Origin: a virus
Direction: 5' to 3' (one strand)
DNA length: 64,000 nt
Virus record (IMG/VR): IMGVR_UViG_3300034198_012226
Span: 22,482-86,481 of that record
The notes under the pieces are model-generated. The model saw nothing but the letters and a program-made list of their open reading frames with translations, did not search any database and was not told where the DNA came from. The stretch's first letter is position 1. Each line of letters opens with the position of its first letter. This document shows positions 10,852 through 60,808 of the stretch, piece after piece. A program made the translations under genes and the position numbers.

Positions 10852-11394
10852 ATGGACAAGAACGACGTTTTGGATTTTGCGAAGAAGGCCATCCCCTGGA
10901 TCGGGGCGGCGGCTACCGGCAATGTGCCGGTGCTGGTCGCAATGGCTTCGCAGGCAGTCAGCGATGCGCTCGGCGTCAAGGTCGAGGCTACACCGACTGC
11001 AATCGCGGAAGCAGTGGCAGGCGCGACACCTGAACAGATGATCGCGCTGAAGGCGGCAGAGAACGACTTCGCGCTGAAGATGCGCGAACTCAACTACAAG
11101 GAAGTGACCGAGCTGTACGCTTCAGAGGTGGCCGACCGCAATGGTGCGCGGGAGCGCGAGGCGAAGGTCAACGACCACACCAACCGCAACCTGGCGTACC
11201 TGGTCATCGGTGCGTTCATCGCCATGGTGGCCTGCACCCTGATGGGCTGGACGAAGGCCGAGTCGGTCATGGCGGGCACGCTGATCGGCTACCTGTCGGC
11301 GAAGGCCGAACAGGTGCTGTCGTACTACTTCGGCAGCACGCGAGGCAGCTCGCGGAAGACGGAATTGCTGGCGTCGAAGACGCCGACAAAATAG
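10852..11394 (+). CDS. Holin-like membrane protein (3TM/GTA holin-like)
   Basis: DR..AR.RE, two transmembrane helices, V.SYYFGS.RGS..K. Confidence 0.7.
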   Translation: MDKNDVLDFAKKAIPWIGAAATGNVPVLVAMASQAVSDALGVKVEATPTAIAEAVAGATPEQMIALKAAENDFALKMRELNYKEVTELYASEVADRNGAREREAKVNDHTNRNLAYLVIGAFIAMVACTLMGWTKAESVMAGTLIGYLSAKAEQVLSYYFGSTRGSSRKTELLASKTPTK

Positions 11395-11433
11395 GGATTG
11401 CAACTCAGGAGGAGGTGATTCTCTATCTAGGTC

Positions 11434-11454
11434 GAGGCCCCGTAAGGGGCCTTT
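11434..11454. terminator. Terminator between convergent late and replication units
   Basis: GAGGCCCC-GTAA-GGGGCCTTT hairpin. Confidence 0.75.
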
Positions 11455-12006
11455 ACCTTATGGTGAAGCTATTCCGCTTCGCTCGGTTTGCTACCTGGGT
11501 CAAGACCTGGAAGTTATTCCACACACATGAAGTCCGCAGACGAGGTCTCCACGAAGTGGTATGACATGATCCACCTCCCAGGGTTCGCCAGTCAGCACCT
11601 CAAGCCGAATAGCTAGGTCACAGGCTTCGTAGAATACAAGGTCAGTCAACTCGGACGACCAAGGCATCACGGCCCGCTTCCTGGCGGCTCGCCGCTTGGA
11701 GCTATACCTGCGAACAGCGTCGGGATTTTCCCGCTTATATCGCCTACAGGTCTCACGGTGGGCTTCCTTCTGCTCGACCGTTGCAGACGACTTGTACCTG
11801 TTCCGGATAGCCGCTGACTTCTCTGGGTTCTCCTGTGCCCAACGAACCCTGCGGGCGGTCTCATGAACCTTATTTTCCTGGGCCTTGGCAGACCGGCGAA
11901 GCCTGGCGCAAGGTTTGCAGGCACTGCTATACCCACTGCTCTGGCTCTTGTCCACGTAGAACGACTCGAAGGGTAGAACCTGCTTGCAGGCATAGCAGTT
12001 TTTCAC
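11453..12006 (-). pseudogene. HNH homing endonuclease with a 2-nt frameshift near the C-terminus
   Basis: CxxC zinc knuckles and WEVDHVIPLRG..VCGLHV; the expected continuation WNNFQVLTQVANRAKRNSF lies in another frame after CATGTGTGTGG. Confidence 0.75.
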
Positions 12007-20900: not shown

Positions 20901-21274
20901 GGTGGCCCCTCTTTCTTCGCGGGGTGACCTTCAGGCAGCATGGCCTGGGCCACCTTCTGCGCCGCCTTCTTTCGCCCGCCACCCTTCTGTGCCGGTGGCG
21001 TCCAGGTCGGCCCCATGATGCGAACCAGGGACTCGGTGTTGAGGGTGTCTTTCCAGGCCGGAGGTGGCAGGCCATTGGCCATGGCCACCACGTCCTCCAG
21101 GTGGCAGGCGATGATGCCTTCCTTCGCACCTTTCACATGCGCCGAACGGTTCTTCGAGAAAGGCCACCAGTTGACCATGGTGGCGCTGCCGGTGACCTGG
21201 AAATGGCCGGGACTCGGCTCTTTCAGCTCGACTCCGAGCTGCTTCAGTGCCGAGCGAATCTGCTCGTCGTTCAT
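20888..21274 (-). CDS. Hypothetical protein
   Basis: ATGA overlap with the pol stop; GGAGG RBS. Confidence 0.6.
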   Translation of the reverse strand: MNDEQIRSALKQLGVELKEPSPGHFQVTGSATMVNWWPFSKNRSAHVKGAKEGIIACHLEDVVAMANGLPPPAWKDTLNTESLVRIMGPTWTPPAQKGGGRKKAAQKVAQAMLPEGHPAKKEGPPWSE

Positions 21275-23556
21275 GCTGCCTCCAACATGGTTGCCTTGGC
21301 CTTGCTGAACACCTCGTCCAGCGCCGCCTTGATGTTTTCTTCGATGAACCAGTCGCCGCATTCGATCTGCTCGCCGAAGTTCGGGCCGAGGGAGATCGAG
21401 GACATGCAAGGGACGGTCATGTCGTGGTACTGCTTCGTCATGCACTCGTGGATGATGCGGATCGCTTCCACGGCGTGATCCTTGTGGATCGAGAAAACCA
21501 GCTCGTCGTGAATCGGCGCGATGAAGCGGCAGTCGAAGTCGAACAGCACGCCGCTGTCCCAGACACGAGCCATGGCAAGTTTGGTCTGCTCTGCCGACGA
21601 ACCCTGGATTTCAAAGTTCGGACCTTGACGACCGGCCTTGTTCGCGGTCGAGCGATCCTGCAACAGCTTGGCCAGGTGGCGACGGGCACCCATCAGGGTC
21701 ATGGCGTAGCCGGTCTCCTCGACACGGGCACGCACGCTGTCCTTCCACTCGGTCACGCCGGGGAACATCTTCTCGCGGGCATCCAGGAAGTCCTGGGCGT
21801 CCTTCACCGGGATCACAATCGTGTACGCCAGGGTCAGCGCCTGGGCGTCATACTGTGCGCCGAAGTTCACGTTCTTCGCCACCTTGCGGAGGTCGTCGGC
21901 CATCTTGGCGATGGCTTCCTCGTCCCACTTGCGCAGCTTGATGAAGACGGTGTATTCGATCTCCTCGGCGGTGCCGGTGAAGTTGGCCGCGCCGACCATC
22001 GACTTCAGCTCCTCAACCTTGTCCTTGCCCCACTTCTTGAGCATGGCACCGGCAGCGGTGATGGAGTGCGGGTCTTTCAGGTTGTCGCCGATGTAGCAGG
22101 CGAGCATGTTGCGATCCTGGGACATGTGGGCCGCGAGCCTCAGCTCCTGACCCGAGAAGTCCAGCGACACGATCACGGCGTCCTTGTGGTGCGGCACGAT
22201 GATCTCGCGCACCTTGATGCCTTCACCCTTCTTCGGGAGCTGCTGCAAGTTCGGGCCGGACGACGAGTAGCGGCGCGTCACCGTCGCGCACTGATTCATG
22301 GACGAGTGCAGCTTGCCGTCCTTCCAGTGCTTCAGGTACGGGTACGGGTTGTAGTACAGGCCGCGCTTCGTCATGACCTTCTTCATCGCGGAGATGCAGT
22401 TCAGGATCACTTCGAGGTCGGGGTCTTTGTCCTTGTCGTACAGCAGGGCGAAGTCGATGGCGGTGTCGTCGGTGGACGCTTTCGTCCGCACCAGTGCCCA
22501 CTCCTCCGGCGAGAGCTGTGGCTCCTCGCCAGCCATCAGGAACTTCTTGAATTTGCTGACGGCCTTCACCAGGTCGCGGTTGAACTTGTAGTTGTCCTCG
22601 GTCAGCGCCGACGTGACGCGGATCGGCAGCTTCAGGATGTCGTACATGAAGACCTTCATCTTCTTGGCCGACTTCACGTCGATGGCAGGCTCGGACTTGT
22701 ACTTGTTGAACAGCAGGCTGTTGATGTAGCGGACATCGCCGCGCTCGACCGCATCGCAGAAGTTGGCAAGTCCTGCGTCGCTGCCGTCCGTGCCCGACTC
22801 GGTCATGATGTCCATGGCCAGGACGTTCAGCTTGTGCTTCTTCGACGTGGGCCGGAAGCCGAACAGGTCTTCGCAGGCGTCCTTCACGGTGGCGTTGGTG
22901 CATTCCGTGAACGGCTTCCAGAGCTGATCCAGGATGCCCTTCTGCACCAGGACATCAGTCAGTGTAGCCCTGGCCCTCTCGAAGGCTTTGTCGTCCTCGC
23001 GCTCCAGTTGCTTGAGGCGCTCGACCGAGACGTTACAGCCCTGGACATACGAGTGTGCGGTCATGTAGGCAGGCTTCACCTCGACCTGTTCGTACACGCC
23101 CATGGTCTTCTCGATCTCCATCACGAGGCCATAGAAGTTGTAGAGCGCAGCGGTGCAGATGGTGTCGTCGGCACCGTAGGCCAGCACGTCCTCGGCTTCC
23201 AGCTCGTTCATGCGGTACTGCTTGGAGACGATGCGATCCTTGAACGCCATCTTCAGCTCGTGCATGTCCTCGTAGCCGTGCTTCTCAAGGGCCTGCTTCT
23301 GCTTCTTCGGCGGCATCTCGGCGATGCGGTCGATGTTGATCTTCCAGGTATCCTCCACGATCTTGCCGCCCACTGGCAAGTCGTAGAGCCGGCCGGTCTT
23401 GGTCGTCACTTCCTTGTACGAGACCTGGTCGTAGTTCAGCCAGAGCTTGGAATTCTGCTTCAGGCCATTGCTCCAGTTCTCGTCCACGTAGGACGACATG
23501 ATCTTCGTGTCGTGGGCGTTCGACATGAAGCCACGGTAATCGGCGGCACCCATCAC
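21271..23556 (-). CDS. Family A DNA polymerase, C-terminal part (ExoIII + polymerase domain)
   Basis: YGADD (ExoIII), TRRYSSSGPNLQQ, DFSGQELR (motif A), KNVNFGAQY (motif B), IHDEL (motif C); has its own GGGAGG RBS. Confidence 0.92.
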   Translation of the reverse strand: MMGAADYRGFMSNAHDTKIMSSYVDENWSNGLKQNSKLWLNYDQVSYKEVTTKTGRLYDLPVGGKIVEDTWKINIDRIAEMPPKKQKQALEKHGYEDMHELKMAFKDRIVSKQYRMNELEAEDVLAYGADDTICTAALYNFYGLVMEIEKTMGVYEQVEVKPAYMTAHSYVQGCNVSVERLKQLEREDDKAFERARATLTDVLVQKGILDQLWKPFTECTNATVKDACEDLFGFRPTSKKHKLNVLAMDIMTESGTDGSDAGLANFCDAVERGDVRYINSLLFNKYKSEPAIDVKSAKKMKVFMYDILKLPIRVTSALTEDNYKFNRDLVKAVSKFKKFLMAGEEPQLSPEEWALVRTKASTDDTAIDFALLYDKDKDPDLEVILNCISAMKKVMTKRGLYYNPYPYLKHWKDGKLHSSMNQCATVTRRYSSSGPNLQQLPKKGEGIKVREIIVPHHKDAVIVSLDFSGQELRLAAHMSQDRNMLACYIGDNLKDPHSITAAGAMLKKWGKDKVEELKSMVGAANFTGTAEEIEYTVFIKLRKWDEEAIAKMADDLRKVAKNVNFGAQYDAQALTLAYTIVIPVKDAQDFLDAREKMFPGVTEWKDSVRARVEETGYAMTLMGARRHLAKLLQDRSTANKAGRQGPNFEIQGSSAEQTKLAMARVWDSGVLFDFDCRFIAPIHDELVFSIHKDHAVEAIRIIHECMTKQYHDMTVPCMSSISLGPNFGEQIECGDWFIEENIKAALDEVFSKAKATMLEAA

Positions 23557-54812: not shown

Positions 54813-55052
54813 TCAGCCCTCCATCCGGACGGAGAGACGGCCGATGCCGAAGGCGAAGACCACGGCCACGCAAGGCAGCGCCACACCGATCCAGCCCATG
54901 AACGGGGAATACTGCTCCTCGGTCAGGCAGAACTGGTAAGCCTGGGTGCCGACCAGGAACAGGATTGCGCCCATGATGATGGTGATGCCGACTGCCTGGA
55001 TTGCGGCGATGCGGCGTTCGGTGCGGATACGGCGTGCGGTTGCGGTGGACAT
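54813..55052 (-). CDS. Small two-TM membrane protein
   Basis: Two hydrophobic segments. Confidence 0.55.
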   Translation of the reverse strand: MSTATARRIRTERRIAAIQAVGITIIMGAILFLVGTQAYQFCLTEEQYSPFMGWIGVALPCVAVVFAFGIGRLSVRMEG

Positions 55053-55065
55053 GGTGTTGCCTTTC

Positions 55066-55512
55066 TTATTTGGGTTGTGGTTGTGGGCGACGGCGACCGA
55101 ACAGGTGCCAGGTATTGCAAAACGGGCAGGCTTCGTACTCCTGCCCCAGTTCCCCGGCCACGACTCGGGCCTGGGTACCGTTCGGGAACTGGCGCTTGCC
55201 AGCACACACGAGCGGTGGTTTCGATACGCACGGTGCCCAGATCATGTTGAGCACGCGGCGGGTGGTGGAACCGTAGGACGGCAGCGACAGGCGGGGCCGA
55301 CCGGCCAGGTGCAGTACCCATTCGGTTGCGATGCGGGTGGACTTGCTCATGGCCTCGACACCGTACTCGGCATCCAGCTCGGCGGCGAATCCTTCCGGGG
55401 TATCGGGCCTGGGGCCGTGGCCCCGCACCAGCAGCGCCTTGGTTCGTGCATTCGGCGGGCCGTACAGGCGCAGGAAGTAGCCCTGCCGGTGGATGGATTT
55501 CTGCTTGGGCAT
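55066..55512 (-). CDS. Hypothetical protein with zinc finger
   Basis: C.GK..F...Y.CPFC..WHL motif. Confidence 0.6.
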   Translation of the reverse strand: MPKQKSIHRQGYFLRLYGPPNARTKALLVRGHGPRPDTPEGFAAELDAEYGVEAMSKSTRIATEWVLHLAGRPRLSLPSYGSTTRRVLNMIWAPCVSKPPLVCAGKRQFPNGTQARVVAGELGQEYEACPFCNTWHLFGRRRPQPQPK

Positions 55513-55516
55513 GGGA

Positions 55517-55939
55517 TCAGTTCCAGTTGGCGTAGGGTTCACCGCCCATGGTCGTCAAATGGACGGCGTCGAGGTACAGCTCGGGGTGCTTCATGGTGCG
55601 GGTGGCCTGGACAACGTCCTCGCGCAGCTCCGGGTAGTTGGGCCAGCACATGACGAGCGGACGGCAGGCGTCCAGGATGCGGAAAGCGAAGGGAACCTCA
55701 CGCTCTATCAGGTAGATGTACGAGAAGGGGCGCTTGTACAGGGCCACGCCTTCATCCTGGAGCTTTCCGCACATCGGCTCCGGCCAGCGCCAGCACGGGC
55801 GACCCTCGATCATGAAGGTGCCGACCTCGCCCTTGAGGAGACCCTCGGAGACGGTGCCGACGTGGACGATGTAGACGGAGCCGTTGTACTCGACACCGTA
55901 GACCCTAACGTCAGTGTAGCCTGGGAATGTGGTCTTCAT
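55517..55939 (-). CDS. Hypothetical protein
   Basis: GGGAG RBS; coupled. Confidence 0.6.
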   Translation of the reverse strand: MKTTFPGYTDVRVYGVEYNGSVYIVHVGTVSEGLLKGEVGTFMIEGRPCWRWPEPMCGKLQDEGVALYKRPFSYIYLIEREVPFAFRILDACRPLVMCWPNYPELREDVVQATRTMKHPELYLDAVHLTTMGGEPYANWN

Positions 55940-56247
55940 GCCAGGGCCACTCCCAGTGCCGATGCGTAGCGACGGGCCGACAGGTCAGCCAGGAAGTTTG
56001 CCTTCTGCACGTCCCAGGACGGACGGCGACGGGCACCGGCACGCTCTTGCGCCTTGGCCCAGGCCAGGTCGATGCGGGTGCCGCCGAACATGGCCACGTC
56101 AGCATCGTGGACAGCCTGGCGGGCGATGAACTCCGGGTTGGTGCGGTAATACTCGTAGTCGGCGGCGATGCGGGTGGCCTCGGCGCTCGGGTCGATAGTG
56201 ACGATGGCGGTGGCGAGGGCGTTGACGTGGATGATGGTAGCGGACAT
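55936..56247 (-). CDS. Hypothetical protein
   Basis: AAGGA RBS. Confidence 0.6.
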   Translation of the reverse strand: MSATIIHVNALATAIVTIDPSAEATRIAADYEYYRTNPEFIARQAVHDADVAMFGGTRIDLAWAKAQERAGARRRPSWDVQKANFLADLSARRYASALGVALA

Positions 56248-56323
56248 GGGATTTCCTTCCAGTTAGGAATTGGATTTCAGATTGGATTTGAATCTGGCAA
56301 GGGCGGTGCCGGTGCCAGGGATA

Positions 56324-57037
56324 TTAAGCGCCGCCGTTACGCTGCCAAATGGTTTGCTTTTCGACAGGGATTCGCTGGCGATCCAGGGCAGCACATAATG
56401 CGGCTTCACGTTCGTTTTCCAAACGCTCGGCAGCGCCATATTCACGGACAGGGGCAAGTAAATCGAGACCCTTCTGATAACGGCGGCGCAGCTCGTGCAA
56501 TTTGATCGGTTGAATCGTGGTGAGTGGAACTCGGCGACGTACAGGCTTTCCGGTTTCCACGTCGATCTCGGTAATCATAATGCGATGGATCGTGGCACCC
56601 TCGGGTAAATCCTCACCGGCATTATCGGCCAGGTATTTCTCCAATTGCTTGAGCGTCCAGCCCTTGCCATGGATCGTATCGACCAATATGGTTTTGGGTT
56701 GAATCTCGGCAGCTTCACGCAGGCCGACCCAGGCCACGTTCTTGGGATTGAAGCCGGACTTCAGGTTAATGCGCTTGATGAATTGGCGGCGCAGTCCCAG
56801 GGGTTTGGACGGATCAAAGTCCGACTCGAAGAACTCCTCGTTGTCGTCCACGAAGTTATCGAAGTCGTACCAGCGGTGCATGACGGTGATGCCCCTGGCA
56901 CCGACCAGGTGGAACAGCTTGTGGTTGGGATCGTCGCAGGAGTCGAGCATCTTCTTCCACTGCTTGTACATGGGATGGGACTTGTAGCCGTAACGGATGA
57001 CGCGAGCGGGCCGGTCATCCAGGTCAAGGTCGAGCAT
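56324..57037 (-). CDS. Divergent homing-endonuclease-like (HNH-related) protein
   Basis: HP.Y..W..M...C..P........GARGITV..RW..F.NF..D...RI....GFNP.NV.W family pattern; the usual DRID is replaced by KRIN. Confidence 0.65.
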   Translation of the reverse strand: MLDLDLDDRPARVIRYGYKSHPMYKQWKKMLDSCDDPNHKLFHLVGARGITVMHRWYDFDNFVDDNEEFFESDFDPSKPLGLRRQFIKRINLKSGFNPKNVAWVGLREAAEIQPKTILVDTIHGKGWTLKQLEKYLADNAGEDLPEGATIHRIMITEIDVETGKPVRRRVPLTTIQPIKLHELRRRYQKGLDLLAPVREYGAAERLENEREAALCAALDRQRIPVEKQTIWQRNGGA

Positions 57038-57070
57038 GGCGGTTTCCGTTAGTAGTGTGTGGGAATCGTG

Positions 57071-57100
57071 ATTCTACACGTCAATCAAGGATTCCAGAAG
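57071..57100 (-). promoter_or_regulatory. Promoter of the leftward early operon
   Basis: Minus strand GTG-TAGAAT extended -10 with an AT-rich upstream region (57100-57190). Confidence 0.55.
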
Positions 57101-57249
57101 AAAGAGATTCTGAAGTACAAAAAATTTCGTTTAGCAGTCCAAAAATAAAATTTGGATTTGTTTAGACTACTAGGTAAAAACTACCTTGCAGTAAAGCTCC
57201 TCCTATGAGGAGAGGCCGCACTTGCATAAGGTTTAGGCAGTATTCCCTT

Positions 57250-58180
57250 AAATGATGTGGCAAAGTTCTACGCATTTGGTAGATGTGTTACGCCACTTGC
57301 AGTGCGGGTGCCAATGAGCATTCCAATTGGAACACGCATTGGCACCGGCACTGATCCACGCCGTACCCCGTTGGTTGGGGGTCGAGATGGTCATCAGGCG
57401 GTGCTGGCCTCCGGTTGTTGTATCCCCTTTGGCCTTCCCTCGCGTCGAACTGGTCTCGCATCCATTGTGGGCCTCATTGCGGGCCTACACTGGGTGCTGT
57501 CGTCATCTGTACACTGGCGCAGGGCACAACCCCTGTCTTTACCCCTGGGATGCGCTCCCAGTTATCACGGTGAGAATACTGCGCAGGAGGGTATTGCTAT
57601 ATGTCCCTCACTCCTACACTCGTCATTGCCGATCACCCTTACCAGAGGGAACCATTACGGCCGTTTGCCTGCATGACTCTGGTATGTGTACAGTTTGTCC
57701 CTGTGCGCTCCTGATGGGATATAAAAACGGGGCGCTCAAGCGATACCACCCGCGAACGGTAAATGGGGCGCTAGACTGCGATGCCGTTGCACCTGGTGAG
57801 GCACAACGCACAGGGTAGAAACTGTTCGCCGCGTCATCACCAGGCGTAATTCGGCCTGGGACAATCGCGGGAATGTTGCTTTATTCGGTAAATGCCACCG
57901 GCAGCGGATACGCCAGGCTTATCAGAATGTGCGAGTAATGCCAGGGGCATCACCGCGCCATTACTAATGAGCGGGTATCTTTTCGGGTGGCATGTTGTTA
58001 ATGAACCGATCCTATCGAATCACCATGGGCGAGTAATGACAAAGCATCACCGCACAGCATGAGTAATCCGGCAGGATTCGGCGCGCATGGGCGCACCGGG
58101 CAAATTGGCATCGTTTTGTGCCGGTCTGCACTTCAGGATTTAAAGGCCCTGCCTATAGCAAGGCCCTTAAATCCTGCCCC
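57250..58180. ncRNA. Putative large structured non-coding element
   Basis: No credible ORF; many hairpins and long-range complementary segments (see findings). Confidence 0.45.
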
Positions 58181-58208
58181 GTCACCAGGGCAGGCAGGAA
58201 ACTACAGG

Positions 58209-58970
58209 TTAGGCAGCGGCAGGGGCAGCGGCGCGGCGCGCTTTACCTTTACCGGCTGGCTTGCCTTGCTCGGCAGGGGCAGGGGCAGGGGCAGGGGCAG
58301 GGGCACCGGCAGCGGCACCGGCGGCAGCGATAGCGGCACCGGCTTGCTTGTCGGCGAACTCAGCCAGGGCAGCGGCTTTGCCCTCAGCGAACGATTGCGC
58401 CAGGGCGGCAGGCACGCCCAAAGCATTGCGGAAATCGTCCATCAAGCCAGGGGCAGCGCGGCCGGTCACCAGCAAAGCCAGGGCAGCGCGCAGAACGTCG
58501 GAATCCGTCATGATGGAATCAGCCGCCACCAGCCCACGTTCGGCAATTTCTTTCTCGACGGCAACCTTTACGGCAGCGGCTTGCTCCTCGGCCTTCTTGG
58601 CTTTGGCTTGCTCTTTCTCGGCCTCGGTTTTCTCGGCAGGCAGGGCGGCAAGATAGGCAGTCTCGAACACGTTCGCCAGGCGCTCGGCCTCGGCCTCATT
58701 GCGTGCGGCGCGCTCCTCGGCAGTGATTTGCTCTTGCGGCTTGATGAACAGGGCAATGTAACCCACGGCAACAAAGCCAGCGTGAAGGGCCTTGCCCTGG
58801 ATGCTCTTGCTTTTTGCTGCCTCGGCAGCGCCAGCCAGCCAGTATTTATCCGTGCCCTTTACAGCGGTGAGGGCAGCGGTAAAGATGATGTTCAGGCGAA
58901 GGGCGGCACCGGCTTGCTTGTTACCAGCCAGGGCGGCGATTTGAGTTTGAAAGTCAAGATTCTGTTTCAT
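58209..58970 (-). CDS. Ala/Lys-rich first early protein with (PA)n tail
   Basis: AGGAG RBS and its own promoter; long inverted repeat at 58134-58176 downstream. Confidence 0.7.
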   Translation of the reverse strand: MKQNLDFQTQIAALAGNKQAGAALRLNIIFTAALTAVKGTDKYWLAGAAEAAKSKSIQGKALHAGFVAVGYIALFIKPQEQITAEERAARNEAEAERLANVFETAYLAALPAEKTEAEKEQAKAKKAEEQAAAVKVAVEKEIAERGLVAADSIMTDSDVLRAALALLVTGRAAPGLMDDFRNALGVPAALAQSFAEGKAAALAEFADKQAGAAIAAAGAAAGAPAPAPAPAPAEQGKPAGKGKARRAAAPAAA

Positions 58971-59048
58971 GGTTTGATGCTCCTATTTGGAGTGCCCTAC
59001 AGGGCGGGTTATCCGGATCAACAATGCGTTGTCCGTTTGAGAGATTCC

Positions 59049-59077
59049 ATTCTCGCAGAACTCATATACGTTTGCAA
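59049..59077 (-). promoter_or_regulatory. Sigma70-like early promoter
   Basis: Minus strand TTGCAA-N17-GAGAAT. Confidence 0.6.
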
Positions 59078-59189
59078 GTGTTTTCTTTGAAGTGTACGGA
59101 ATATGTTGTTCGTTGTTTCGCCGCCACATTCCCATGTTGCTATCCGGCAACATGTACGAGGGCACTAATAGTTGTCACTCTGACAACAT

Positions 59190-59472
59190 GGGCACCGGCA
59201 CTGGCCATGGCAGCGCCAGGGCAGGCGGCAGGGGCACCGGCACCGGCAGTGCCAGGGCAGGCGGCAGCGGCAGGGGCAGCGCCAGGGGCACCGGCAGTGC
59301 CAGGGCAGGCGGCAGGGGCAGCGCCTATATAGGAGGGCAGCGCCAGGGGCACCGGCAGTGCCAGGGGCAGGGGCACCGGCAGTGCCTATATAGGAGGGCA
59401 GCGCCAGGGGCACCGGCAGTGCCAGGGGCACCGGCACCGGCAGTGCCTAAGCCAGGGGCAGCGGCAGCGCCT
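59190..59472 (+). repeat. GGCA-based low-complexity repeats with 2x CCTATATAGG
   Basis: Recurrent GGCACCGGCAGTGCCAGGG(G)CA units. Confidence 0.85.
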
Positions 59473-59489
59473 ATGTGTTGTTACTCTGA

Positions 59490-59577
59490 CACTCTTATAT
59501 AAGACTTACAGGCACTCTTATATAAGACTTACAGGCACTCTTATATAAGACTTAGGGGCACTCTTATATAAGACTTC
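59490..59577. repeat. 4 x 23-bp tandem repeat, core palindrome TCTTATATAAGA
   Basis: Cores start at 59493, 59516, 59539 and 59562. Confidence 0.95.
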
Positions 59578-59595
59578 ACACTTTTTAACACAAAG

Positions 59596-59654
59596 TTATC
59601 CACAATTGGCACCCCTCAAAACGCATCAGATCGGCCTGTATTGAGTTATCCACA
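59596..59654 (+). promoter_or_regulatory. Two consensus DnaA boxes
   Basis: TTATCCACA at 59596-59604 and 59646-59654. Confidence 0.8.
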
Positions 59655-59706
59655 GGCACCCTACCCTACCCCTTACCAGGGCGGCGAACGTGGCACCAGG
59701 ACGTTT

Positions 59707-59726
59707 TACTGTATATTTATACAGTA
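59707..59726. promoter_or_regulatory. LexA (SOS) box
   Basis: TACTGTATATTTATACAGTA matches the proteobacterial CTG-N10-CAG consensus almost perfectly. Confidence 0.85.
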
Positions 59727-59732
59727 GTTTTT

Positions 59733-59879
59733 GCTTAAAAAATAGGCAGTTTTGGCACCGGATTTGCCTATTATTTAGGCAGCAAACAGGGCAGCGCCAG
59801 GGGCACCGGCACCGGCACCGGCAGTGCCAGGGCAGGCGGCAGGGGCAGCGCCAGGGGCACCCGTGCTTAAATTTTAGGC
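59733..59879. promoter_or_regulatory. Three Fis-like sites and a sigma-54 -24/-12 motif
   Basis: GCTTAAAAAATAGGC (59733), GCCTATTATTTAGGC (59766), GCTTAAATTTTAGGC (59865); TGGCAC-N5-TTGC at 59753-59767. Confidence 0.6.
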
Positions 59880-59940
59880 AGGGCAGGCAGCGCCAGGGCA
59901 GGCGGCAGCGCCAGGGGCACCGGCAGTGCCAGGGCAGGTG
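59788..59940 (+). repeat. GGCA-based low-complexity repeats
   Basis: Same units as 59190-59472. Confidence 0.85.
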
Positions 59941-60170
59941 ACGGGGCAGTCTTTAGCGCGCTGGACGGTGCCGGTGGCGATCCTACCCGCTCAAAAATTC
60001 CCGGCGCATTTTCCAAAAATTCGATGCAATTCCGACAACACCGGCACCGCAGTCGGTGTAGGACATGACGCCGCCCCTGTGTCATCCAGGACACACGGGA
60101 TTTCCAGATGACAAGTGGAACGAACTCATCTATGATTGCCCCCAGTCAAAACAACAGGGGAATCGGAAAC

Positions 60171-60359
60171 ATGTTCAGGCCAACGTCAAACGTCGGGAAA
60201 GCGGCAAAGCGGTCAGCACTGTCCATCATCGCTGGCACCGCCATCGCCACCTCCTACCACGTCGTCATGGGCCAGAACCCTGTCGCCACCCTATCTCTGG
60301 GCGTCGGCGCTCTCATCGGCATCGCCACCCTCATCGCCTACTACAAGCCAGCCAAATGA
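60171..60359 (+). CDS. Small two-TM membrane protein
   Basis: Two hydrophobic segments; first rightward ORF. Confidence 0.5.
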   Translation: MFRPTSNVGKAAKRSALSIIAGTAIATSYHVVMGQNPVATLSLGVGALIGIATLIAYYKPAK

Positions 60360-60808
60360 ACATCTTCGCCCATACCGAACCCACCGGCCCGTACCCCGCC
60401 TACGTCTCGATCAACGACCGGCACAACGACCACGTCACGATCACGGTGCGCAGCCGTGGCAACGACGGGCGCGACATCGGTGCCATGACCATGCCCACCT
60501 GGAAGCTCCGTGAAATGGCCACCAAGCTCCTGGAGCACTGCGACGCCGTCGATGAAACGAACGGCAAACTGAAACAGGCACCGGCACAGCTCCCGAAACC
60601 GCCCCTGGGCAGCTCCCACTTCCCGAGCGTGGACGAGATGGTCAACCGCTTCCTGGGCTGGAAACTGCCCGAAGACTTCTACCCCGACTGCGGCATCCAG
60701 TTCGCCAAGCCCGCTGACCAGCTCTCCTGGCCGACCGGCACCAACCTGCTGCACGCTGGCCAGGCCAAGGGAATGATCCTGCACATCCTGACGGGCGGTG
60801 CCAAGTGA
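60356..60808 (+). CDS. Hypothetical protein
   Basis: YPAYVSIN and MV.RFLGWKLP.DF.PD.GI...P.GTNL conserved phage modules. Confidence 0.65.
   Translation: MNIFAHTEPTGPYPAYVSINDRHNDHVTITVRSRGNDGRDIGAMTMPTWKLREMATKLLEHCDAVDETNGKLKQAPAQLPKPPLGSSHFPSVDEMVNRFLGWKLPEDFYPDCGIQFAKPADQLSWPTGTNLLHAGQAKGMILHILTGGAK

Follow-up and report, generated by a model that had tools for sequence, protein, structure and literature searches.

A candidate 0.95-kb structured RNA with a conserved fold behind the first leftward gene of a group of uncultured phages

The DNA analysed here (the window) is 64,000 nt in length and represents bases 22482-86481 of an 86,481-bp IMG/VR virus, record IMGVR_UViG_3300034198_012226. 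It has a gap without open reading frames (ORFs) at positions 57038-58208, flanked by two minus-strand genes, and inside this gap is a 931-nt stretch (57250-58180) that was initially annotated as a candidate large phage non-coding RNA. The gap is non-coding and has an exceptional, well-defined fold that is conserved, with compensatory base changes, in a related phage. It probably represents a new multi-domain RNA of ~0.95 kb, made from the minus strand early in infection in a clade of ~86-kb uncultured phages; that it is transcribed, where its ends lie and what it does, we infer. A multi-domain RNA comparable to the large phage non-coding RNA classes, one of the two readings offered in the initial annotation, is the best supported in view of the conserved fold, the compensatory changes and the invariant loops. 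The other, a structured DNA signal, is weakened.

The initial annotation saw no phage-like ORF in the gap, and the sequence bears this out. The spread of GC between codon phases is 0.02-0.12 over positions 57300-58110, compared with 0.3-0.57 in the flanking genes. Each reading frame has 12-18 stops and 7-13 remain when any one stop codon is read as sense, i.e., no single stop-codon reassignment opens the gap. There is no ORF conserved between this gap and the corresponding gap of the close relative G001, where the best tblastn matches are of 20 residues or fewer, whereas both flanking proteins are recovered in G001 at 49% and 55% identity. An ORF of 10 or 19 codons over a conserved block was rejected, as it has no Shine-Dalgarno sequence and the differences are not at third positions.

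Secondary structure modeling shows that the 931-nt stretch is unusually stable. The folding z-score against dinucleotide shuffles, proposed as a check in the initial annotation, is -7.71 for the minus strand and -4.91 for the plus strand, and none of 20 shuffles is as stable. Because a long GC-rich sequence alone can yield a negative z, four coding windows of the same length were folded as controls; these have z-scores of -2.13, -1.31, -2.08 and -0.06. The fold of the gap is also unusually well defined in that the centroid energy is almost equal to the minimum free energy (MFE), with values of -389 versus -397.7 in the window and -345.8 versus -352.9 in G001, unlike the coding controls, where the two differ by 45-65 kcal/mol. 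Fold energy was further compared across the genome in 300-nt windows, with regression on GC (1,730 strand-windows). The windows at 57920, 57120 and 57820 rank 2nd, 3rd and 7th of the 1,730, and only the two ends of the gap stand out. The most negative GC-corrected fold energy of the scan, -3.21, is at 11220-11519 on the plus strand.

G001 is the only close relative found in IMG/VR. It is 86,761 bp, its DNA polymerase is 80% identical, and gene order is preserved, the homologues of the two flanking genes being separated by a gap of ~1.1 kb. The z-scores of the G001 gap are -7.88 (gene strand) and -6.46 (other strand). When folded independently, the window and G001 RNAs display the same order of helices. 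From the 5' end, these are a small hairpin behind the stop codon, a long hairpin termed H1, a hairpin with the loop CAAAACGA, long bulged hairpins and a closed branched domain. Next come the CCCUGUGC/GCACAGGG stem with ~100 nt inside, a GGG-GUUGUG-CCC hairpin, a long conserved block, a CAACCAAC-loop hairpin and a long terminal hairpin.

The two RNAs were aligned by a script that uses sequence and per-base pairing probability but not the identity of the pairing partner. On this alignment, 85 of the 391 MFE pairs of the window RNA coincide with pairs predicted independently for G001; 52 of these are unchanged, 11 have a single-sided change and 22 a double-sided change. A reversed G001 sequence gives 14 common pairs, and three dinucleotide shuffles give 11, 22 and 11. 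The covariation suggested as a check in the initial annotation is seen as pairwise compensatory differences between two sequences, with 22 double-sided changes versus 1-9 in the controls. A MAFFT alignment shows 59 pairs in the 3' domain (84.2% paired, 9 double changes) and 34 pairs in the 5' hairpins (93.8% paired, 5 double changes); because the tested structure is that of a single row, the paired percentages are inflated, whereas the counts of double changes are unaffected. With partners slid, the values are 32-44% and 0-1 double changes for the 3' domain and 30-52% and 0-1 for the 5' hairpins; 3 of 500 and 10 of 500 shuffles, respectively, score as high.

The hairpin loops behave differently from the stems. 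All four loops closed by common pairs, CAAAACGA, GUUGUG, CGCAA(U)GA and CAACCAAC, are identical or one letter apart between the two phages, whereas their stems vary. Loops that stay frozen while their stems drift are in accord with a folded single strand and not with sites in duplex DNA. Over the whole gap, 594 of 1,004 aligned positions (59%) are identical between the window and G001, compared with 41-43% at the third codon positions of the two flanking genes, which indicates that the gap is under selection. This pattern suggests that the helices are kept by selection and that their sequences are free to drift.

The RNA strand is probably the minus strand, the same as that of the flanking genes. 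The initial annotation could not assign a strand from G-U wobbles, and G-U counts still do not separate the two; the minus strand is favoured by lower energy and lower z-scores in both alignable phages and by the GNRA loops of a third phage, G002, which are on the gene strand only. Energies of the gene strand and the other strand are -433.1 and -406.8 kcal/mol in the window and -367.6 and -332.6 kcal/mol in G001. The gene strand is the more stable in the window despite being U-poorer.

G002 is 84,785 bp and has a polymerase that is 58% identical. It has a homologue (46% identical) of the gene downstream of the gap, with an ORF-free stretch directly upstream of it. With z-scores of -3.92 (gene strand) and -2.69 (other strand), this stretch has a weaker fold signal than the window gap. 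Its gene strand has 10 GNRA tetraloop hairpins, whereas the other strand lacks them; shuffled sequences have a mean of 1.09, and 0 of 500 reach 10. In addition, a GCCUGCC-loop-GGCAGG hairpin is found behind the stop of the upstream gene in all three phages. G002 supports the presence of a gene-strand RNA at this site, but its status as a homologue of the window RNA is not proven. The minus strand of the G002 segment analysed also has a perfect palindrome, CATTTACAGTAAATG, in three copies (~2770-2790, 2598-2615 and 2400-2420 of that segment), each enclosing the TAA stop of a gene, and a variant at 1262-1280 just before the HNH-like gene. The copies and the variant bracket the structured gap and two small ORFs, of 46 and 60 codons, that are led by Shine-Dalgarno sequences; they might serve as operators or in processing.

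No catalogued RNA family accounts for the gap. A covariance-model search with Rfam, as proposed in the initial annotation, gave no match at gathering score over the whole window, and at E <=10 (positions 56900-58400 and 55000-60500, the G001 gap and the G002 gap) only chance-level miRNA, snoRNA and sRNA matches were obtained. There are no Rfam covariance-model matches for GOLLD, ROOL, OLE, raiA, HEARO, group I/II introns, RNase P or 6S, and ARAGORN finds no tRNAs. These results agree with the earlier remark that hallmarks of group I/II introns and tRNAs are missing. A group I intron was rejected with its catalytic-core covariance model unmatched; a group II intron was rejected with no Rfam match and no reverse-transcriptase domain (Pfam) in the eight neighbouring proteins searched; and a HEARO/IscB omega RNA was rejected with no Rfam match and with neither a RuvC nor an HNH Pfam domain in the 237-aa neighbour protein. 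Neither the window gap nor the G001 gap has DNA similarity to GenBank phages.

Several observations weigh against a large minus-strand RNA. There are only two alignable sequences, so that "covariation" here means pairwise compensatory differences, and the G002 gap has no sequence motif in common with the window RNA. The middle of the gap (57320-57620) is average in the 300-nt scan (-0.4 to +0.4), and relatives differ or have deletions in this same part. The helix register of the longest conserved block differs between the two MFE folds, and this helix is only 62-67% paired on the MAFFT alignment. With regard to strand, the G-U counts are equal on the two strands of the window RNA (34 versus 35), G001 lacks a GNRA tetraloop hairpin (stem >=4) on either strand, and the raw MFE of G002 is lower on the opposite strand (-399.8 versus -387), though the z-score favours the gene strand. 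Simple scans of the gap found no minus-strand terminator or promoter.

Every structure named in the initial annotation is found at its stated position. The secondary structure model of the minus-strand RNA is described here from the 5' end; p values are mean pair probabilities in the MFE fold of the window RNA. The small hairpin after the stop codon (58176-58191) has a stem of the GCCUG/CGGGC type, overlaps the 13-mer GGTGACGGGGCAG and has 5 pairs in common with G001. H1 (58135-58175; 19 pairs, p 0.91) corresponds to a previously noted 43-nt inverted repeat without a U-tract at 58134-58176, whose arms are 19 nt and 89% complementary; no T-run follows it. Eighteen of its pairs are common with G001, with 5 double-sided and 2 single-sided changes; in the MAFFT alignment, pairing is complete (100%) for 16 pairs, with 4 double-sided changes. 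H1 may be a 5' boundary mark or a putative processing site. An intrinsic terminator was rejected for H1 and for the last hairpin, there being no terminator-like minus-strand site in the gap. H2 (58100-58129) has the invariant loop CAAAACGA at 58111-58118 and one G-C to C-G exchange in its stem.

A short GC hairpin (58079-58098, p 0.91) and a 27-pair bulged hairpin (58010-58076, p 0.94) make up the next part, 58010-58098. The bulged hairpin bears the first copy of a directly repeated module, GCGGUGAUG...CAUUACUCGC. The G001 counterparts are hairpins of different sequence at the same relative position that could not be aligned pair by pair. The branched domain that follows (57885-58009, p 0.75-0.96) is closed by 58005-58009 with 57885-57889 and by 57984-57993 with 57892-57901. 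The latter is the nested ATGCCACC/GGTGGCAT pairing of the initial annotation, and it encloses a 31-pair hairpin (57907-57979) with the second module copy. Its equivalent in G001 is a closed domain at positions 243-375 of the G001 RNA. A 16-pair hairpin containing GGUGAUGA (57829-57870, p 0.99) has an 8-pair hairpin at the same position in G001.

The long-range stem domain (57699-57815; CCCUGUGCG.../...CGCACAGGG) is formed by 57699-57709 with 57805-57815, i.e., 11 pairs with p 0.92 and ~100 nt enclosed, as had been proposed. Ten pairs are common with G001, some of them altered from G-C to G-U or from G-C to A-U. The variable middle (57541-57693) consists of hairpins at 57640-57684, 57581-57619 and 57545-57561, the last of which was previously noted and has 6 pairs (p 0.87); ~70 nt of this part are missing in G001. 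The GUUGUG-loop hairpin (57519-57537) has an invariant loop, and its closing pairs are C-G and A-U in the window but A-U and U-A in G001. The longest conserved block (57458-57507) comprises GAUGACGACA.CAC..AGUGUAG..CCGCAA and the hairpin 57458-57497, which had also been noted and is found with 13 pairs (p 0.88) and a GCAA-containing loop. The loop reads CGCAAUGA in the window and CGCAAGA in G001.

Toward the 3' end, the hairpin with the invariant loop CAACCAAC (57356-57390) has 10 pairs in common with G001 with 5 double-sided changes; on the MAFFT alignment 8 pairs are 100% paired with 3 double-sided changes. The hairpin at 57300-57353, described in the initial annotation, has arms of 27 nt that are 85% complementary and 23 pairs in the MFE fold (p 0.97). 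Sixteen of the pairs are common with G001 (5 double-sided and 5 single-sided changes), and the MAFFT alignment shows 23 pairs, 90.9% paired, with 5 double changes. The 3'-terminal hairpins, 57257-57296 and 57187-57226, have p values of 0.62-0.92, and the base of the last has 4 pairs in common with G001. The 3' end of the RNA, as judged from the model, is probably near 57187-57296.

The proposed RNA would be a single molecule of ~0.95-1.0 kb, roughly 57190-58190 on the minus strand, delimited by its long terminal hairpins. Transcription would run leftward, either continuing from the first gene of the leftward unit, which directly precedes the RNA, or beginning near GGTGACGGGGCAG. The helices, at least 12 in number, would in part make up two closed multi-helix domains and, toward the 3' end, a domain of four hairpins. 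The frozen loops may make tertiary or intermolecular contacts, as GUUG is complementary to CAAC. A kissing interaction between the GUUGUG and CAACCAAC loops, which are complementary, is put forward as an idea only, since neither loop varies and there is no covariation to test. In the same way, the duplicated bulged hairpin module could conceivably be a protein-binding site. The role is the least certain part of the proposal; it would most probably be that of an RNA scaffold or decoy early in infection, as other large phage RNAs are thought to act.

A bolder proposal, which is offered tentatively, is that this RNA is the first known representative of a new class of ~1-kb phage RNAs. The frozen loops, through GUUG-CAAC pairing and a GNRA-type loop, would build a compact or multimeric particle, and a protein of the host or the phage would be captured by the duplicated bulged hairpins. 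The whole would serve as a host-takeover machine or decoy and not as a passive spacer, with the G002 RNA as a diverged member of the class. If this is true, the RNA would be among the largest non-ribosomal structured RNAs from bacterial viruses and would be made in the first minutes of infection.

The flanking genes are part of a block of leftward genes that, from the ORF list, starts at ~59000, and rightward genes start at 60065. The gap is therefore directly behind the first gene of the leftward unit. Family searches show that the genes around the gap are mostly without known function. The upstream gene (58209-58970, minus strand) encodes a 253-aa protein with an Ala/Lys/Pro-rich tail, which has no matches in PHROG, Pfam or NCBIfam and is 49% identical to its G001 homologue over 188 aligned residues. 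As the first gene of the unit it sets the 5' boundary of the RNA and is itself outside it. The gap also includes an AT-rich spacer (57038-57186, minus strand, GC 0.45) that precedes the next gene and is counted as a boundary and not as RNA. Its equivalent in G001 has a GC of 0.355-0.375, that of G002 is likewise AT-rich, and in the window GC falls across 56200-57400.

The downstream neighbour gene (56324-57037, minus strand) encodes a 237-aa protein and serves as a marker of the clade. The N-terminal domain of this protein is similar to the DNA-binding portions of phage proteins that carry an HNH or homing endonuclease annotation, with PHROG matches confined to residues 16-135. Pfam detects neither an HNH nor a RuvC domain in the protein, NCBIfam gives no match, and no relatives of solved structure are found (best E 0.42). 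Atlas leads are weak, i.e., I-HmuI NUMOD-like in 17% of the members of one cluster and AP2 in 13%. As the HNH label stands on residues 16-135, with no Pfam HNH domain and weak Atlas leads, an RNA-guided nuclease is unsupported. In G003 (IMGVR_UViG_3300012020_000004), a more distant relative, four separate genes match the N-terminal domain only (residues ~6-137), which suggests that this domain is a spreading module in the phage group.

The 13-mer GGTGACGGGGCAG is present in exactly two copies in the window, in divergent orientation. The minus-strand copy (58174-58186) coincides with the 5' edge of the proposed RNA, the plus-strand copy (59937-59949) precedes the first rightward gene by ~115 nt, and similarity continues through the 9-10 bases that follow the motif. 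The 13-mer, which is also found on loose ends of wastewater contigs, might be a promoter or operator of the phage. A second non-coding region, 59130-59945, is situated between the divergent gene blocks and has GGCA-type filler and four TCTTATATAAGA palindromes. The only two consensus DnaA boxes of the whole window, at 59596 and 59646, are inside this region, ~1.4 kb from the gap, and it is probably a regulatory or origin region. The DNA polymerase (21271-23556, minus strand) is of a short form (~720-760 aa); many relatives are fused proteins of ~1,150 aa with 5'-3' exonuclease domains.

This polymerase is only ~27% identical to those of cultured Vibrio and Pseudomonas phages; it has 621 relatives at E <=1e-30, many on contigs of 75-95 kb. 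The 237-aa neighbour protein has 14 homologues with 49-86% identity, several on 84-87 kb contigs, which places at least ~15 members in the clade. Searches for further copies of the RNA locus were largely negative. Each flanking protein alone as a query in IMG/VR gave nothing, and a search with the neighbour-protein alignment gave G001 as the sole close relative in viral and metagenome contigs and nothing in genome contigs. Pattern scans with the conserved blocks found G001 and chance loci (3 viral and 59 genomic) without further blastn similarity. In a comparison of the gap DNA with five more distant relatives all matches have E >=0.09, and two weak G002 matches are in coding DNA. In ten more distant relatives, the neighbour profile matches only the N-terminal domain of several paralogous genes, and no orthologue could be placed.

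A relative with 81-97% identity over the gap and the flanking sequence is present in two wastewater runs. One wastewater contig has positions 57905-58017 (113 nt, most of one hairpin domain) replaced by 15 letters, and another has 57543-57608 (66 nt, variable middle) replaced by 65 other letters. These replacements suggest that whole modules are gained or lost among relatives. None of the sequencing runs on record as RNA contains the stretch; these two wastewater runs, labelled "RNA-Seq cDNA", are kept as contigs and flagged as probably DNA, and they were not used for expression.

The fold and its conservation would fit equally well a structured intercistronic spacer that acts in cis as part of the early mRNA and sets processing (RNase III or RNase E), stability, read-through or downstream translation. 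The gap is between two co-oriented genes and shows no detectable promoter or terminator of its own on the minus strand, H1 is right behind the stop codon and has no U-tract, and the GCCUGCC/GGCAGG hairpin is placed in this way in all three phages. However, a length of ~950 nt, closed multi-helix domains and four frozen loops together go far beyond what processing or antitermination signals are known to require, for which T7 RNase III sites and nut and put sites provide the size comparison. Moreover, all three phages have an AT-rich spacer of 150-300 nt before the next gene, which suggests that this gene has its own start signals. A cis-acting spacer is considered rather unlikely.

Action at the DNA level is considered less probable still. 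The gap might be a T5-like injection stop or belong to a replication origin, one variant being a ColE1- or T4-style structured pre-primer RNA with an R-loop in the AT-rich stretch downstream. It adjoins the HNH-like gene, the two DnaA boxes are in the next non-coding region, and an AT-rich stretch does follow the structured part. No DnaA box is present within 57038-58208, however, and arms that drift and compensate around frozen loops point to a folded single strand, whereas T5 repeats are described as conserved in sequence and order. The strand-asymmetric energies and the strand-specific GNRA loops of G002 are properties of RNA and not of duplex DNA. The initial annotation placed the stretch near the genome end, to which no weight can be given, as the 87-bp terminal repeat of the source record is probably an assembly artefact of a circular or permuted genome. 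An origin pre-primer RNA might run into the AT-rich spacer, but it would itself be an RNA and would overlap with the proposal of a large structured RNA.

That the gap is an old intergenic dump of palindromic repeats, or the decayed remains of a mobile element, is very improbable in spite of the resemblance of the neighbour gene to free-standing homing-endonuclease genes, the local drop in GC and a variable middle that folds no better than the genome average, given an identity well above that of third codon positions, collinear helices with their excess of double compensatory changes over the controls, and invariant hairpin loops.

To our knowledge, few large structured RNAs exist other than those of the ribosome, and all that have been studied so far (RNase P, introns, OLE, GOLLD, ROOL) have brought surprises. 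Another case would be added by a 1-kb RNA whose fold is conserved and which immediately follows the first early gene in a group of phages that, as judged by the polymerase relatives, is widespread in metagenomes. The candidate roles, i.e., host takeover, defence evasion and replication start, are directly testable. The gap is also a warning to annotators that "empty" kilobase gaps of phages can be genes.

Comparison with known systems shows partial likeness to several. As with group I/II introns, a large structured RNA with GNRA-type loops would lie beside a homing-endonuclease-like gene. Unlike introns, it matches none of the models. In each of the three phages a stop codon ends the upstream ORF and a conserved hairpin follows it. 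The subsequent genes are ORFs of their own, and the neighbour has no detectable catalytic HNH domain; no split host gene was found, though no systematic search for one was made. H1 is similar to the RNase III hairpins of T7-like phages in that it is a long hairpin without a U-tract directly behind a gene. T7-like RNase III sites are single hairpins of some tens of nucleotides, whereas the window RNA is multi-domain and ~950 nt, with H1 as a putative cleavage site.

The untranslated repeat regions of T5 are also similar in several respects. Parts of one report on T5-like phages describe untranslated regions of >1 kb packed with inverted repeats and palindromes, in the pre-early DNA that enters first and next to DnaA boxes; in T5 an HNH endonuclease gene splits one such region, and the repeats are conserved in sequence and order (10.1101/866236). 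Like those regions, the gap extends for >1 kb without genes, is rich in inverted repeats and belongs to the early region; it has an HNH-type gene adjoining and DnaA boxes near, and it is conserved across a phage group. The T5 regions, as described there, act on DNA with their sequence conserved, whereas the window stems covary and the loops are frozen, and strand-specific features point to RNA. The paired DnaA boxes inside inverted repeats that are a T5 trait have no counterpart in the gap, the boxes at 59596 and 59646 being outside it.

GOLLD and ROOL, which are large "ornate" RNAs of phages and prophages, are associated with tRNAs, whereas no tRNA genes are near the window RNA, and their Rfam models are unmatched at gathering score or at E <=10. 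The genomes that carry the window RNA are GC-rich, ~86 kb and from wastewater-type samples, and the RNA is known from a predicted fold. The likeness is that of a phage-borne large non-coding RNA, several hundred to ~1,000 nt in length, with many helices. GOLLD/ROOL-type RNAs form RNA-only complexes, according to part of one report (10.1101/2024.12.08.627333), and the conserved hairpin loops of the window RNA could similarly make RNA-RNA contacts.

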